From the IMG/VR virus record IMGVR_UViG_2778261274_000007, positions 1 to 44,196 of that record: a DNA stretch of 44,196 bases; one strand, given 5' to 3'. Position numbers and translations under genes: made by a program. Positions 38,544 to 44,196 of this stretch are shown here, piece after piece; the first letter of the stretch is position 1; each line of letters starts with the position of its first letter. The notes beneath the pieces are model-generated. The model was given only the letters and a program-made list of their open reading frames with translations, was not told the origin of the DNA and searched no databases. This DNA comes from a virus (taxonomy: Duplodnaviria; Heunggongvirae; Uroviricota; Caudoviricetes).

Positions 38544-38904
38544 TCATTGCAAGGGCTCACAACCAGTAGTGTTGAGAAAACCATCGGAGAAATGAGGCTA
38601 AGCCTTTGAATTTACATAGTACAAAAAAGATACTTTTCCTCATAATGTGAGCTAATTTTATGTTTCGTTTGATGATTGGACCGGTCTCGAAAACCGTAGA
38701 CACATAGTATGCGTTAATTTATGAACAAACTACTTGTCTGCTGTTTTTCTGTCATTAGTCGTATATAGAATGATTCTCTATGCCTAACAAAGCATCACCA
38801 GTGCTAGATTACGTTGTAGTCACTGTTTAAATATCCAGATAAAACATTTCCTTCTGGGTTGAATGAGTGATAAAGTTTCACCCATTAGACCCCTTGGAGG
38901 AATT

Positions 38905-40338
38905 ATGTCTGAATTTGAAGTGTTGGCACAGCATCTGCTGAAGGAAGCCGAGGCGGAAGAAAAGCTGCGACAGGAAAATGATAAAAAGCTTATCGAGAAA
39001 GTGCTGGAAATCTATGATCAGAAGTATGTGGCTGAATTACTGAGAAAAGTCGGAAAAAATGAGTGGAGCCGTGAAACCATTAACCGCTGGATTAATGGCA
39101 AGTGTTTACCAAAATCGTTGACTTCAGTAGAAGAGTCTCTTCTGCGTAAGATGCTACCAGAACCACCTGCAAACCATCCGGAATATGCTTTCCGCTTCAT
39201 TGACTTATTTGCTGGAATTGGAGGGATACGGAAAGGTTTTGAGGCCATTGGAGGCCAGTGTGTTTTTACCAGTGAATGGAATAAAGATGCTGTGCGTACA
39301 TACAAGGCCAACTGGTTTAACGATGAACAGGTGCATAAATTCAATCTCGATATTCGGGAAGTCACGCTGAGTGATAAAACCGATGTATTGGAAACGGATG
39401 CTTATGCATATATTGATGAGCATGTGCCGGATCATGATGTGCTTCTTGCGGGGTTCCCGTGCCAGCCATTTAGCCTTGCTGGTGTTAGTAAGAAAAACTC
39501 ACTTGGTCGTGCGCATGGTTTTGAATGTGAAGCACAAGGAACACTTTTTTTTGACGTGGCACGTATTATACGAGCAAAAAAACCGGCAATTTTTGTGCTG
39601 GAAAATGTCAAAAATCTGAAGAGCCATGATAAGGGTAAAACTTTCAAAGTCATTATGGAGACCCTTGACGAGCTGGGCTACGAAGTTGCCGATGCTGCAG
39701 AAATGGGAAAAAACGATCCAAAGATTATCGATGGGAAGCATTTTTTGCCTCAGCATCGTGAACGCATTGTTCTGGTCGGATTTAGACGAGATCTGAATAT
39801 TCACAAGGGGTTTACCTTGCGTGATATCAGTCGTTTTTATCCGGAACACCGCCCATCATTTGGTGAATTGCTGGAGCCTGTAGTCGACAGTAAATATATA
39901 CTTACGCCAAAACTATGGGAGTACCTTTATAACTACGCCAAAAAGCATGCAGCCAAGGGGAATGGTTTTGGCTTTGGGTTGGTCAATCCTGAGAATAAGG
40001 AAAGCATTGCACGCACACTTTCTGCCAGATATCACAAAGACGGATCAGAAATTCTTATTGATCGTGGTTGGGATATGGCAACGGGAGAGGCTGACTTTAT
40101 GAATGAGAGTAATCAGGCTCGTCGACCACGCAGGCTGACTCCCCGAGAGTGCGCACGCCTTATGGGATTTGAAAAACCTGGAGGGAAACCATTCCGTATT
40201 CCGGTTTCAGATACTCAGTCATATCGGCAGTTCGGTAACTCAGTTGTGGTGCCAGTATTTGAAGCTGTTGCCAGACTTCTGGAACCCTATATCCTCAAAG
40301 CTGTTTCTGCTGATGCTGGTAAGACTGGGCAGCCTTGA
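38905..40338 (+). CDS. ecoRIIM: DNA C5-cytosine methyltransferase, Dcm / M.EcoRII family (477 aa from internal Met)
   Basis: Motifs I ([10 protein letters not shown]), IV (GFPCQPFS) and VI (ENVKNL); close resemblance to E. coli Dcm; GGAGG RBS at 38896. Confidence 0.8.
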
Positions 40339-40372: not shown

Positions 40373-41587
40373 CTATGATAGTTCAGCGTAAAGCTCTATC
40401 AGCTCAGTAATGAATGCTCCGAGCGTTATTAATTCTTCTCTAACTGCTTCTGGGTATTTTTTATGTAAAGTTGATGGTACAACGAGTCTGACACCCGCAT
40501 CTTTCATTTCTCGGTATTGTGCTGAAGAAACACCTTCTTGCAGTGTAAATAAATGTACCTGATGGATTTTATCTGCTTCATTCAGTATCTGACGCCAGCG
40601 ATCTTTGCAGGTGGTCTTTACTGCCAGCATACGTAAGTTTTCTACAGGAAATTCAACGTTATGATATGCCTCTGCTGAAGGAAACAGGAAATCTGGTTTT
40701 TTATTACCTTCAGTAACTGCCTGAGTGGAGAAATGCCGTAGTCCGTGCTCGATAAAAAGCTTCTCTAGGTGAAGTTCAAGTGATTTGCCTGCCCTTGATT
40801 TACGTCGATTACTGACAGAGTTGGCTAATGCAATAAACTCATCTACAGAATCGAATCCTTTCTTAATAATATCAAGAACATGTAATTCCTCGACGAGTAG
40901 AAAAATATCATACTCGACACGCCGACGGTCAATCAGTTGCTCATCTGGATCCTTGGAGTTTTTAGCATAATGGCCAGCAGCATATTGAATAATTTCGTTT
41001 CCAGAAGGAAAACGCTTCTTCCAGTCTTCAGGAATAACATATTTATGATTTACTGGAGTTTGCTGAAGAGACAATCCGCCCAAAATTTGTCCGGCAGGGC
41101 CGGAAATTAGGGTTCCAGGTATGATTTCGCCAATAGCAGACTCGATGATATCCTCTTCATCGGGATTGACGCAGACCCATATATCTACCTCGGAACAGTC
41201 AGTGTTCTGTTCGTTTAACCTGAAAGCAAGAATTGTGAGGGCTCCTGTATTTTCAGGGTTCTGTAATGGACTTCCTCTCCCCCAGCGCGTAATTCTTTTT
41301 TCGTTTCGGGTCTTACCAAAATAACGGTTGTTGTAATAAATTGCGCGTGCTTGGGTATCAGGGCAATCATGGGATGATACATGCGCAGTAAGGAAGACTG
41401 AAGGGTTCAGTTCGCGAGTATGATTGATAGATGGAAAAAGCTTTTCAACGATATTTGAGGGGATATAAAGTCCGACCTGATGGCCACCTGTTGCGCCTGT
41501 GTCGTTTGCAGAAAGGCGTTTGATGTAGATAAAGTAATTCCCGCTTGCGATATCAAGCAGCCAGTTATGAAAAACCGACATATACAT
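40373..41587 (-). CDS. ecoRIIR: Type IIE restriction endonuclease, EcoRII-like (404 aa)
   Basis: Convergent with the Dcm-family methyltransferase; length and N-terminal sequence consistent with R.EcoRII as recalled. Confidence 0.7.
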   Translation of the reverse strand: MYMSVFHNWLLDIASGNYFIYIKRLSANDTGATGGHQVGLYIPSNIVEKLFPSINHTRELNPSVFLTAHVSSHDCPDTQARAIYYNNRYFGKTRNEKRITRWGRGSPLQNPENTGALTILAFRLNEQNTDCSEVDIWVCVNPDEEDIIESAIGEIIPGTLISGPAGQILGGLSLQQTPVNHKYVIPEDWKKRFPSGNEIIQYAAGHYAKNSKDPDEQLIDRRRVEYDIFLLVEELHVLDIIKKGFDSVDEFIALANSVSNRRKSRAGKSLELHLEKLFIEHGLRHFSTQAVTEGNKKPDFLFPSAEAYHNVEFPVENLRMLAVKTTCKDRWRQILNEADKIHQVHLFTLQEGVSSAQYREMKDAGVRLVVPSTLHKKYPEAVREELITLGAFITELIELYAELS

Positions 41588-41690: not shown

Positions 41691-41834
41691 GTCACTCGAG
41701 AGCCGCGGCTCCTTTGCGTATCCTTTTTTGTCTCCTCACCGTCTGGTCGGTGTCCTGCTGAGACTGCTAACTTCCTGTTTTTGTTGGTGTTGTCCTTACA
41801 CCGTCCAATCATGATTGGTGGAGCTGGCGGGAGT

Positions 41835-41875
41835 TGAAACCGCAGCCACGTCGTATGCAAGAACGTGCTGCGGTT
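41835..41875. repeat. Direct repeat copy 2 (stem-loop) at the right edge of the nuclease/R-M cassette
   Basis: TGAAACCGCAGCCACGTCGTATGCAAGAACGTGCTGCGGTT; arms AACCGCAGC / GCTGCGGTT are self-complementary. Confidence 0.5.
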
Positions 41876-42233
41876 GGCTGGTGAACTTCCGATAGGGCGA
41901 GTATTGAATGATTTACAGCCGTTATTGATTTTACATATTTTTTGTATGAAAGGATTAGCGCCTCCTTCCACCGATCATCCATGACTTTACGCCACTGTCT
42001 CTAGGACTGCTATGTATGCTGATTGGGGAAAGTGTGAAAGAAAAGAAGACTGCTGCGCTGTTTGTCGTCACCTTTATCTTCATTGGCTATGCAAGTCATA
42101 ATACAAGGTGGGACAAAACTGAGACACATAAGGCCTCACAATGGCTTGCAAGGCTTTACATGTTTTGATGTGGTGGGACGTGTGAGCGCAGTGTTGATGG
42201 GGTAATACTTTGAATTAGAAGCGGATTCTTATA

Positions 42234-42279
42234 ATTCGTAATGCGAAGGTCGTAGGTTCGACTCCTATTATCGGCACCA
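42234..42279 (+). repeat. attR: partial copy of the thrW 3' end
   Basis: 46 bp identical to 1399..1444. Confidence 0.8.
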
Positions 42280-42454
42280 TCCTACCTATTTTAACGTCTC
42301 CTTAAGTCTACTCAAATACCTTTTAAACCCTTATAATACGCGGCTTCACGGCCCTTGTTGTCTCTGCTCGTCTACTCACGTTCACAGAAATCTACGGTGA
42401 GTTGGGGGTATCAATGGGGGTATTCGCTGTTCGGTCTAAAGGAGATACCCCCAG

Positions 42455-43669
42455 ATGAAGCTCAATGCCAGACAGGTCGAGACTGCCAAGCCCAAAGATA
42501 AACCCTACAAGATGGCTGATGGTGGTGGCCTCTACTTATTGGTTAAAACTAACGGGTCACGCTACTGGCGTTTAAAGTATCGTATCGATGGAAAGGAAAA
42601 GTTATTGGCGCTGGGGGTATATCCCGATGTGTCTTTGGCTGATGCCAGAGCAAAGCGTGATGAAGCTCGAAAAGGTATCGCTGGGGGTATCGATCCTTTA
42701 GAGCTTAAGAAAGAACATAAAGCTGAGCGTGAAGCGCAGGTCAAAAACACCTTTCAGCAAATTGCGCTCGAATGGCACAGCATGAAAGTGAAAAAATGGT
42801 CAGTTGGGTATGCCTCTGACATTCTCGAAGCTTTCAATAAAGATATTTTTCCTTTTCTTGGTCAACGGCCTGTTGCGGACATTAAGCCATTAGAGCTTCT
42901 TAATGTGCTTAAAAAAATCGAAGCCAGAGGTGCAACAGAGAAAGCAAAGAAAGTGCGCCAACGATGTGGTGAAGTGTTTCGCTATGCCATCGTGACAGGC
43001 AGAGCCGAGTATAATCCCGCTCCTGATCTCACCAGTGCCATGCAGGGGCATGAATCTACACATTACCCGTTCCTGACCACCGAAGAGCTTCCTGCCTTTT
43101 TTAAAGCCCTTGCTGGCTACTCTGGTAGTGAATTGATGGTGTTGGCAGCAAGATTATTGATCCTTACTGGCCTAAGAACGGGTGAATTGCGTGGTGCCTT
43201 ATGGTCGGAAATCGATTCCGAGAAAGCGCTATGGGAAATTTCTGCTGAACGCATGAAAATGCGCCGTCCTCATATCATCCCGCTATCTACCCAAGCGTTA
43301 GCCATTATCGAAAAGATCAGAGCAATGACGGGACAATTCCCTTTGCTGTTTCCGGGCCGCAATGATCCAAGTAAGACCATGAGCGAAGCCAGTATCAATC
43401 AGGTATTTAAGCGAATCGGCTATACAGGACGGGTTACGGGTCACGGCTTCCGTCATACCATGAGCACCGTTCTTCATGAACAGGGCTACAACACCGCATG
43501 GATTGAAACCCAACTAGCCCATGTTGATAAGAATGCTATCCGTGGCACCTACAACCATGCGCAATATCTCGATGGCAGACGCGAGATGCTGCAATGGTAT
43601 GCCGACTACATGGTAAGCCTTGAGAAAGGCGGTAATGTCGTACAGGGAACGTTTAATCGGTGTGGGTAA
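42455..43669 (+). CDS. Tyrosine integrase, P4-like (404 aa)
   Basis: N-terminal KYRIDGKEKLLALGVYP arm-binding-type region; C-terminal HGFRHT and RGTYNHAQY. Confidence 0.85.
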   Translation: MKLNARQVETAKPKDKPYKMADGGGLYLLVKTNGSRYWRLKYRIDGKEKLLALGVYPDVSLADARAKRDEARKGIAGGIDPLELKKEHKAEREAQVKNTFQQIALEWHSMKVKKWSVGYASDILEAFNKDIFPFLGQRPVADIKPLELLNVLKKIEARGATEKAKKVRQRCGEVFRYAIVTGRAEYNPAPDLTSAMQGHESTHYPFLTTEELPAFFKALAGYSGSELMVLAARLLILTGLRTGELRGALWSEIDSEKALWEISAERMKMRRPHIIPLSTQALAIIEKIRAMTGQFPLLFPGRNDPSKTMSEASINQVFKRIGYTGRVTGHGFRHTMSTVLHEQGYNTAWIETQLAHVDKNAIRGTYNHAQYLDGRREMLQWYADYMVSLEKGGNVVQGTFNRCG

Positions 43670-43995: not shown

Positions 43996-44196
43996 ATGAC
44001 AACAAAAAAACTTATTCGCATGCCGGAAGTGATCAATAAAACAGGATTTAGCAAAGCATGGATCTATAGACTTATTAGTAAGGGGGATTTCCCTAAGCCG
44101 ATTAAGATTGGAATAAGAGCCAGTGCCTTTGTTGAAAGTGAGATTGATGAATGGATTGAACAACTGATCTATTCATCACGTAATACAGCTGCATAA
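43996..44196 (+). CDS. alpA: AlpA-family transcriptional regulator (66 aa)
   Basis: MTTKKLIRMPEVINKTGFSKAWIYRLISKGDFPKP resembles AlpA; GGAGA RBS; stop is the last codon of the window. Confidence 0.7.
   Translation: MTTKKLIRMPEVINKTGFSKAWIYRLISKGDFPKPIKIGIRASAFVESEIDEWIEQLIYSSRNTAA

Follow-up and report, generated by a model that had tools for sequence, protein, structure and literature searches.

Repeats between the thrW core and the start of a P4-family integrase gene are most probably arm-type binding sites of the integrase

Arm repeats in the attP site of phage P4 were reportedly described by Pierson and Kahn in 1987. The P4 record (NC_001609) carries the annotation "attP arm sequence repeat" for a tandem pair of 12-bp repeats ahead of int, an inverted copy where int starts, and a copy within the gene; beyond the core, a second tandem pair is annotated on the other arm. 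The content on P4 (Piazzolla 2006; Pierson & Kahn 1987) is given here as far as it is covered by PMC2951348, PMC7286903, and the GenBank annotation. In ICEMlSymR7A, the attP site contains five IntS arm-type motifs, P1-P5, with the consensus TGKTGGTATC, all required for integration according to the account of Verdonk et al. (2019) in PMC11963761; the binding site of the recombination directionality factor (RDF) is immediately upstream of P3, and IntS is a repressor of the promoter from which it is expressed (PMC11963761). In KplE1 (CPS-53), attL overlaps the int promoter, which leads to negative autoregulation, and the same is summarised for P4 (Panis et al. 2010, PMC2951348).

Here we describe a P4-type attachment region in a 44,196-nt stretch of DNA from a virus record (IMGVR_UViG_2778261274_000007); this whole stretch is referred to as the window. 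It contains a complete tRNA-Thr(CGU) gene, thrW, at 1369-1444, and a partial second copy of this gene close to the other end, where the following features are located.

42234..42279, plus strand: repeat of the 3' 46 nt of tRNA-Thr(CGU) (thrW), identical to 1399-1444; attR of the upstream ~41-kb prophage.
42263-42279, plus strand: core of the P4-type island attL, the last ~17 nt of the tRNA repeat (TCCTATTATCGGCACCA); attR remnants of sister islands read TCCTATTATCG-CACCA.
42306..42395, plus strand: second repeat family, GTCTACTCA at 42306-42314 and 42370-42378, and ATCTAC at 42390-42395; between the core and the arm sites.
42332..42337, plus strand: exact TATAAT hexamer, poor -35; alternative candidate for the int promoter, found by sequence reading and missed by the promoter scan; TATAAT or TATACT in most thrW relatives.
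42385..42414, plus strand: position homologous to the P4-type int promoter, weak (CAGAAA, 18 nt, TATCAA; 7/12 consensus matches); the -10 overlaps copy 1.
42403..42412, plus strand: copy 1 of the probable arm-type sites (TGGGGGTATC); with copy 2 it forms the 12-bp tandem pair in the P' arm; position kept in 60+ relatives; homologous to P4 repeat 3954-3965.
42415..42424, plus strand: copy 2 of the probable arm-type sites (TGGGGGTATT), completing the tandem pair; position kept in 60+ relatives; homologous to P4 repeat 3942-3953.
42439..42444, plus strand: Shine-Dalgarno AAGGAG of int, from sequence reading; GGAG is kept in most relatives.
42444..42453, minus strand: probable arm-type site, copy 3, inverted (GATACCCCCA on the plus strand), between the Shine-Dalgarno and the ATG; homologous to the inverted P4 repeat 3915-3926 overlapping the int start; its variable base matches that of copies 1 and 2.
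42455..43669, plus strand: P4-family tyrosine integrase, 404 aa; Pfam Arm-DNA-bind_3 (PF13356) 4.8e-28, Phage_int_M (PF22022) 1.5e-33, Phage_integrase (PF00589) 1.6e-23.
42612..42621, plus strand: further motif copy (TGGGGGTATA) in codons LGVY, probably coincidental.
42670..42691, plus strand: candidate internal arm-site pair at +215/+227 of int, a degenerate AAAAGGTATC (42670-42679) and a full TGGGGGTATC (42682-42691), 12 bp apart; codes KGIAGGI.
43996..44196, plus strand: AlpA-family helix-turn-helix protein, probable excisionase/regulator of the island; Pfam Phage_AlpA 2.9e-20, and so annotated in sister strains.

The first-pass annotation had described two copies of an octamer and its complement as an inverted repeat bracketing the ribosome-binding site of the integrase gene. 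Reading of the sequence and a pattern search bear out all of its coordinates: GGGGGTAT is found on the plus strand at 42404-42411 and 42416-42423, whereas the complement ATACCCCC at 42445-42452 follows directly 3' of the AAGGAG at 42439-42444 and ends shortly before the ATG at 42455 of the 404-aa open reading frame. The extended motif is TGGGGGTATC, which forms a perfect 10-nt inverted repeat (42403-42412 / 42444-42453), and the two upstream copies are a tandem with a 12-bp period. This period, the plus-strand copies inside int at 42613 and 42683, and the nature of the whole region as an attachment site had been absent from that description.

The two tRNA copies enclose a ~41-kb prophage, whose own integrase gene (1459-2622, minus strand) abuts thrW. 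In prophage-free strains, intact thrW stands immediately before the same integrase gene as at 42455, and this gene heads a ~10-kb island with AlpA, MobC, and a relaxase, that is, an integrative mobilizable element. Thus, the motif copies are located in attL of that island, in its int-proximal (P') arm. In the window, int starts 175 bp after the tRNA-Thr 3' fragment, and the repeats at 42403-42453 sit between the tRNA core and int; thrW and int share orientation, with the att arm between them. The IntS/TorI module of KplE1 has this layout as well, with int behind a tRNA gene and read in the same direction (the "STI" shape); it differs in that its P' sites share a conserved TAAA motif and its RDF is TorI rather than an AlpA-family protein (PMC2951348).

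Most probably, the three copies of GGGGGTAT are P' arm-type binding sites of the downstream P4-family Int, located in attL of the ~10-kb integrative mobilizable island at E. coli thrW. The observed basis for this reading is the position of the sites in attL, the homology of their layout and sequence to the arm repeats annotated in P4, the occurrence of the motif on both arms of sister islands, and its joint switching with the N-terminal domain of Int. From these observations we infer that Int would bind the predicted sites, that recombination would need them, and that int would be autorepressed.

The closest likeness is to P4. The repeats agree in number, 12-bp tandem spacing, and orientation, and in where they lie with respect to the core and to the start and coding region of int. 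The P4 repeat sequence, TTGGGGGCATAATTGGGGGCAT...AAATGTGCCCCCAAATG / AAATGTGCCCCCAAATGAAGCTCAAC, is followed by the same N-terminal codons as in the window int; both proteins begin with MKLNARQVET, their N-domains are 67% identical, and the motifs are one base apart (GGGGGCAT in P4, GGGGGTAT here). The two systems differ in their target (leuX in P4, thrW here), in the rest of the integrase (33-41% identical), in the position of the internal copy (+282 in P4, +215/+227 here), and in the -35 and -10 elements at the P4 promoter position, which are degraded in the window. Moreover, P4 is a phage satellite, whereas the window element is an island that encodes MobC and a relaxase and is mobilizable. 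The ICEMlSymR7A consensus TGKTGGTATC matches TGGGGGTATC at 9/10 positions, and in both elements int is located directly downstream of attL; the differences are the alphaproteobacterial host, the 500-kb size of this ICE, an RDF gene far from int, and the five-site requirement, which was tested there.

The arrangement is conserved far beyond the window. We fetched 80 integrase-relative loci and scanned 60 of them for tRNAs; in 50 of these 60, int is preceded at a distance of ~165-175 bp by a complete tRNA-Thr(CGU), with relatives down to ~70% identity. Nearly all Enterobacterales relatives have a direct tandem pair and an inverted copy that adjoins the start codon, and the number, spacing, and orientation of the repeats are constant in >60 loci across Enterobacterales and in P4. 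The first-pass annotation had regarded absence of the motif upstream of related integrases as an argument against its own observation; the motif is present in essentially all relatives. Its variants among the relatives are GGGGGTAT, GGGGGTAC/T, GGGGGCAT, and GGGGGCAC/T. Of 43 distinct sequences, 23 have C at position 6 of the motif and 20 have T (C-type and T-type below), and this base is identical across all three upstream copies with no exception, the switch between the two types corresponding to few independent evolutionary events and the covariation being phylogenetically shallow. The consensus of the thrW-targeting P4-type sites is T-GGGGG-Y-A-Y, in two tandem copies 12 bp apart and one inverted copy. 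A similar architecture is built from unrelated motifs in E. coli K-12, where intA has TAGGCCCA twice and an inverted copy, and intB has TTGGTACA and ATGGTATT and an inverted copy.

The window ends at 44196, and the far arm was studied in islands whose int region is 99.6-99.7% identical to that of the window (KFu023 and W21) and in one C-type thrW island. In KFu023, attR contains a tandem pair, ATGGGGGTATTTTTGGGGGTAT, with a 12-bp period ~60 bp before the attR core. W21, which has a tandem arrangement like that of the window, has the attR pair TTGGGGGTATCTTTGGGGGTAT, again with a 12-bp period and ~60 bp from the core. In the C-type island of strain 1283, whose attL has GGGGGCAT, the same variant is found at attR (GTGGGGGCATTATTGGGGGCAT), ~60 bp from the core and with a 12-bp period. 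The attR tandem pair is 10-20 kb away from the int-proximal copies.

The motif switches together with one domain of the integrase. In the loci with GGGGGCAT (L007-L012 and L015), Int shares 94-96% identity with the window Int over residues 96-404 and 62% over residues 1-95, which constitute the arm-binding domain. Between the tRNA and the start of copy 1, the noncoding DNA of these loci is almost the same as that of the window. Since the N-domain is diverged while the flanking DNA and the remainder of Int are near-identical, the exchanged segment appears to be a cassette of arm sites and arm-binding domain, and the swapped module spans copy 1 to ~codon 95 of int. The residues that separate T-type from C-type Ints are 29 (L vs E/Q), 50 (L/I vs R), 53, 58, 74, 75, 77, and 93; residues 29, 50, 53, 58, and 74-77 are candidate specificity residues that may take part in base recognition.

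In phage lambda, transcription of int does not originate inside attL; the arm sites are clear of the int promoter and the ribosome-binding site, and the N-domain belongs to another family. What lambda Int has in common with the mechanism proposed here is its nature as a heterobivalent recombinase, with five arm sites (P1, P2, P'1-P'3) on two arms and an N-domain that reads them (PMC2951348; general knowledge). In the island at thrW, the arm-binding domain of Int (residues 1-95), which matches the solved apo homologues PDB 3JU0 and 3JTZ, would recognise T-GGGGG-T-A-Y, and the catalytic C-terminal part would bind the core in the tRNA 3' end. The five sites, that is, three in P' and the attR tandem pair outside the window, would bridge the arms and the core to form the intasome for integration and excision. 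Bending proteins and, for excision, the AlpA-type RDF would fold the arms onto the core, the RDF probably acting on the GTCTAC-family repeats at 42306-42395. These repeats are kept and co-vary between groups of relatives, with GTCAAC in one group and TCCGAG three times in P4. They are probably binding-site candidates for the RDF (AlpA), because their position matches that of the RdfS site directly upstream of the arm site P3 in ICEMlSymR7A (PMC11963761).

The location of the arm sites suggests a second effect. In P4, L052, and L017, the promoter scan yields TTGAAA-18-CATAAT, CACAAT, or TACATT at the homologous position, with the -10 formed from the end of copy 1; thus, by standard spacing, the transcript would begin inside copy 2. 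In the window, this position is weak and a sigma-70 promoter scan of 42100-42800 gave no match on the plus strand, which makes the geometry of autorepression less certain here. Should the TATAAT at 42332 serve as the promoter, the arm sites would be downstream of the transcription start, and a hairpin in the 5' UTR could then serve as a secondary brake. Because the tandem pair overlaps the promoter position of the family and the inverted copy lies on the translation start region, Int bound to copies 1 and 2 and to copy 3 would also lower int expression, that is, act as a negative autoregulator. By analogy with P4, KplE1, and ICEMlSymR7A, this autorepression is likely a by-product of the arm sites. 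The suggestion in the first-pass annotation that the repeats are a protein-binding site controlling integrase expression is therefore right in part: the protein is most likely Int itself, acting through its Arm-DNA-bind_3 domain, whereas the control of expression would be secondary to recombination, for which the sites would serve in assembling the attL/attP intasome.

The same annotation also offered a hairpin that sequesters the ribosome-binding site. According to this explanation, base pairing of copy 2 (or 1) with the inverted copy within the 5' UTR of int locks the region from the Shine-Dalgarno to the AUG and keeps translation low, this being the primary function of the repeats. A stable fold is indeed predicted, with a 10-pair stem and -18.3 kcal/mol for 42412-42460 or -28.2 kcal/mol for 42395-42475 (z about -2.7), and the predictions for P4 and intA give equivalent folds. 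With the TATAAT at 42332 as the promoter, the transcript would include both arms, and the P4 authors, as cited by Panis et al. (PMC2951348), propose that the int mRNA is a target of Vis, whose binding may inhibit its translation. In the predicted structure, the loop contains most of the Shine-Dalgarno, and a single nucleotide separates the stem from the AUG. In the alignment, 93% of the cells are paired, and columns 30 and 56 switch from U-A to C-G (20 U-A, 23 C-G); however, pairing of copy 1 with the inverted copy is backed equally by covariation. Covariation fits both pairings because all three copies change together, as a shared recognition sequence predicts, and it was rejected as evidence of RNA structure, being "positive" for two mutually exclusive hairpins. 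Also against the hairpin, the same motif in the same variant forms the attR tandem pair, beyond the reach of any int mRNA hairpin, and where a promoter is recognisable in relatives, its -10 shares bases with copy 1, so that the 5' arm would be largely untranscribed. In the distant relatives L063 and L067 all copies are direct, including the one adjoining the ATG, and in intA and intB the inverted copy is upstream of the Shine-Dalgarno and, in intB, unused in the minimum-free-energy fold. Occlusion of the translation start is thus not conserved in L063, L067, intA, intB, or the relatives with a promoter. A scan of the whole window at the Rfam gathering threshold yielded the tRNA at 1369 alone and no RNA family at the motif region. 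Translational control through the hairpin is therefore not favoured and, as the primary function of the repeats, is unlikely.

A different protein could in principle read the motif, if the repeats are operators for the AlpA-family regulator/excisionase or a host factor and not for Int. AlpA is encoded 330 bp downstream of int and is 68% identical between T-type and C-type islands, so it could co-vary with the motif; for the same reason, the coupled switch alone cannot separate Int from AlpA as the motif reader, and AlpA divergence was set aside as an uninformative discriminator between Int and the RDF. What speaks against such operators is the extent of the swapped module, which ends exactly with the arm-binding domain and leaves the upstream region and the rest of Int near-identical. 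In addition, the five near-identical-consensus sites of ICEMlSymR7A are IntS arm-type motifs, with the RDF on a separate 40-bp region upstream (PMC11963761), and in the window the RDF-site position is occupied by the separate GTCTAC repeat family. We consider operators of this kind very improbable. Finally, a G-rich octamer might recur by chance or be driven by coding, with no function, as the variation at synonymous sites of the copy at 42613 (codons LGVY) in relatives would allow. Six copies of GGGGGTAT are present in the 44-kb window against 0.69 expected, a number reached in 0 of 100 shuffles, and five of the six are clustered inside 290 bp. Together with the constant number, spacing, and orientation in >60 loci and in P4, this makes the explanation by chance negligible.

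As a set of Int arm sites, the element is most probably functional yet ordinary and belongs to a well-known class; what is new is a mobilizable island that is specific for thrW and uses the GGGGGTAT variant. When the literature was searched for earlier descriptions of a P4-like island at thrW, nothing specific was found. The value of the analysis is mainly in annotation: an unexplained inverted repeat becomes an attL with a core, arm sites, candidate RDF sites, and int, the left boundary is fixed for a ~10-kb mobilizable island in tandem with a prophage at thrW, and a usable arm-site consensus is gained for thrW-targeting P4-type integrases. The current understanding of site-specific recombination is unchanged.

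Mildly novel aspects are limited to the swap of the arm module and the pair embedded in the coding region. Tentatively, and with less than even confidence, we propose that thrW integrases with near-identical core-binding and catalytic domains have switched their arm specificity by exchange of a cassette, comprising the three P' sites and the N-domain (about -52 to +285 from the ATG), with matching attR sites, and that T-type Ints have a further, selected tandem pair (42670-42691), at which Int would bind inside its own gene. If this is true, the modules would be orthogonal and able to sit in tandem at one tRNA without cross-excision. The comparison of T-type and C-type loci gives a natural domain-swap series that points to the candidate specificity residues named above and could aid the engineering of integrases with orthogonal arm specificity.

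Within int, the segment 42674-42693 (GGTATCGCTGGGGGTATCGA, codons GIAGGID) shows the top nucleotide conservation of the gene among 15 diverged T-type relatives: its 12-mers are identical in 10 of the 15, compared with a mean of 0.4 over 1088 windows. The diverged T-type relatives have a full tandem pair with a 12-bp period at +217 and +229 of int. This conservation, and the internal arm repeat annotated in P4, make 42670-42691 a candidate additional arm-site pair. The copy at 42613 was rejected as an arm site because its synonymous sites vary freely among T-type relatives.

Some related integrases have an exchanged arm-binding domain. In E. coli strain 1283 (L082, 20356-21570) and in seven species loci (L007-L012 and L015), residues 96-404 of the integrase are 94-96% identical to those of the window integrase, whereas the N-terminal arm-binding domain has been swapped and shares only 62% identity with it. 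The arm sites at these loci are GGGGGCAT. A GGGGCAT copy lies at +70 within the integrase gene in all seven species loci (7/7), and strain 1283 carries the same copy.

A second repeat family occupies the part of the window that separates the att core from the arm sites:

42306-42314, plus strand: GTCTACTCA repeat
42370-42378, plus strand: GTCTACTCA repeat
42390-42395, plus strand: ATCTAC, the third member of the family

This family also co-varies with the integrase group, being represented by GTCAAC in one group and by three copies of TCCGAG in P4. In ICEMlSymR7A (PMC11963761), the excisionase (RDF) binds at the position occupied in the window by these repeats, which are therefore candidate sites for AlpA, the probable excisionase of the island. 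The spacer that separates arm copy 2 from the inverted copy, TGTTCGGTC (42428-42436), is nearly invariant across all relatives at thrW and is retained regardless of the arm-motif variant; P4 and intB have a related TTCGAT at the equivalent place.

In one group of loci (L045-L053, with the arm motif GGGGGCAC; for example, L052, 1485-1503), a very short upstream ORF arises from the inverted arm copy; it reads ATG TGC CCC CAA TGA and overlaps the start codon of int. The corresponding ATG of P4 lies in frame and is annotated as the start of int.

Two stretches inside int are conserved at the nucleotide level. Among diverged relatives of the T-type (base 6 of the arm motif is T), the highest conservation of the gene is observed for GGTATCGCTGGGGGTATCGA (42670-42693), which in these relatives is a tandem motif pair with a 12-bp period. 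This stretch may be a site within its own gene to which Int binds. The second most conserved is ATGCAGGGGCATGAATCT (43039-43056; codons MQGHES, +585 to +602 of int), with 12-mers identical in 7-8 of 15 relatives. Together with the next two bases, it contains a AGGGGCAT-like element and an ATCTAC-like element.

Ahead of the P4-type island, thrW carries a prophage of about 41 kb (1445-42233) with a phage-sized ORF layout; tail and baseplate genes are annotated in the prophage of the near-identical strain W21. The integrase ORF of the window prophage adjoins the tRNA:

1459-2622, minus strand: prophage integrase ORF

The prophage duplicates 46 nt of the tRNA, and thus two unrelated integrases with overlapping cores use one tRNA in tandem. 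In W21, a truncated "site-specific integrase" pseudogene is located directly beyond the island attR, and the approximately 45 nt preceding it are identical to the left end of the window prophage.

The right end of the prophage contains a 23-nt stretch, TGGTGGAGCTGGCGGGAGTTGAA (41816-41838, plus strand), whose reverse complement matches the 3' terminus of ssrA (tmRNA) from E. coli exactly, as compared with K-12. A search of the window for a tmRNA gene detected none, and the stretch looks like an att-site relic within the prophage end. Two ORFs lie beside it:

38863-40338: Dcm-like methyltransferase ORF
40373-41587: 404-aa ORF
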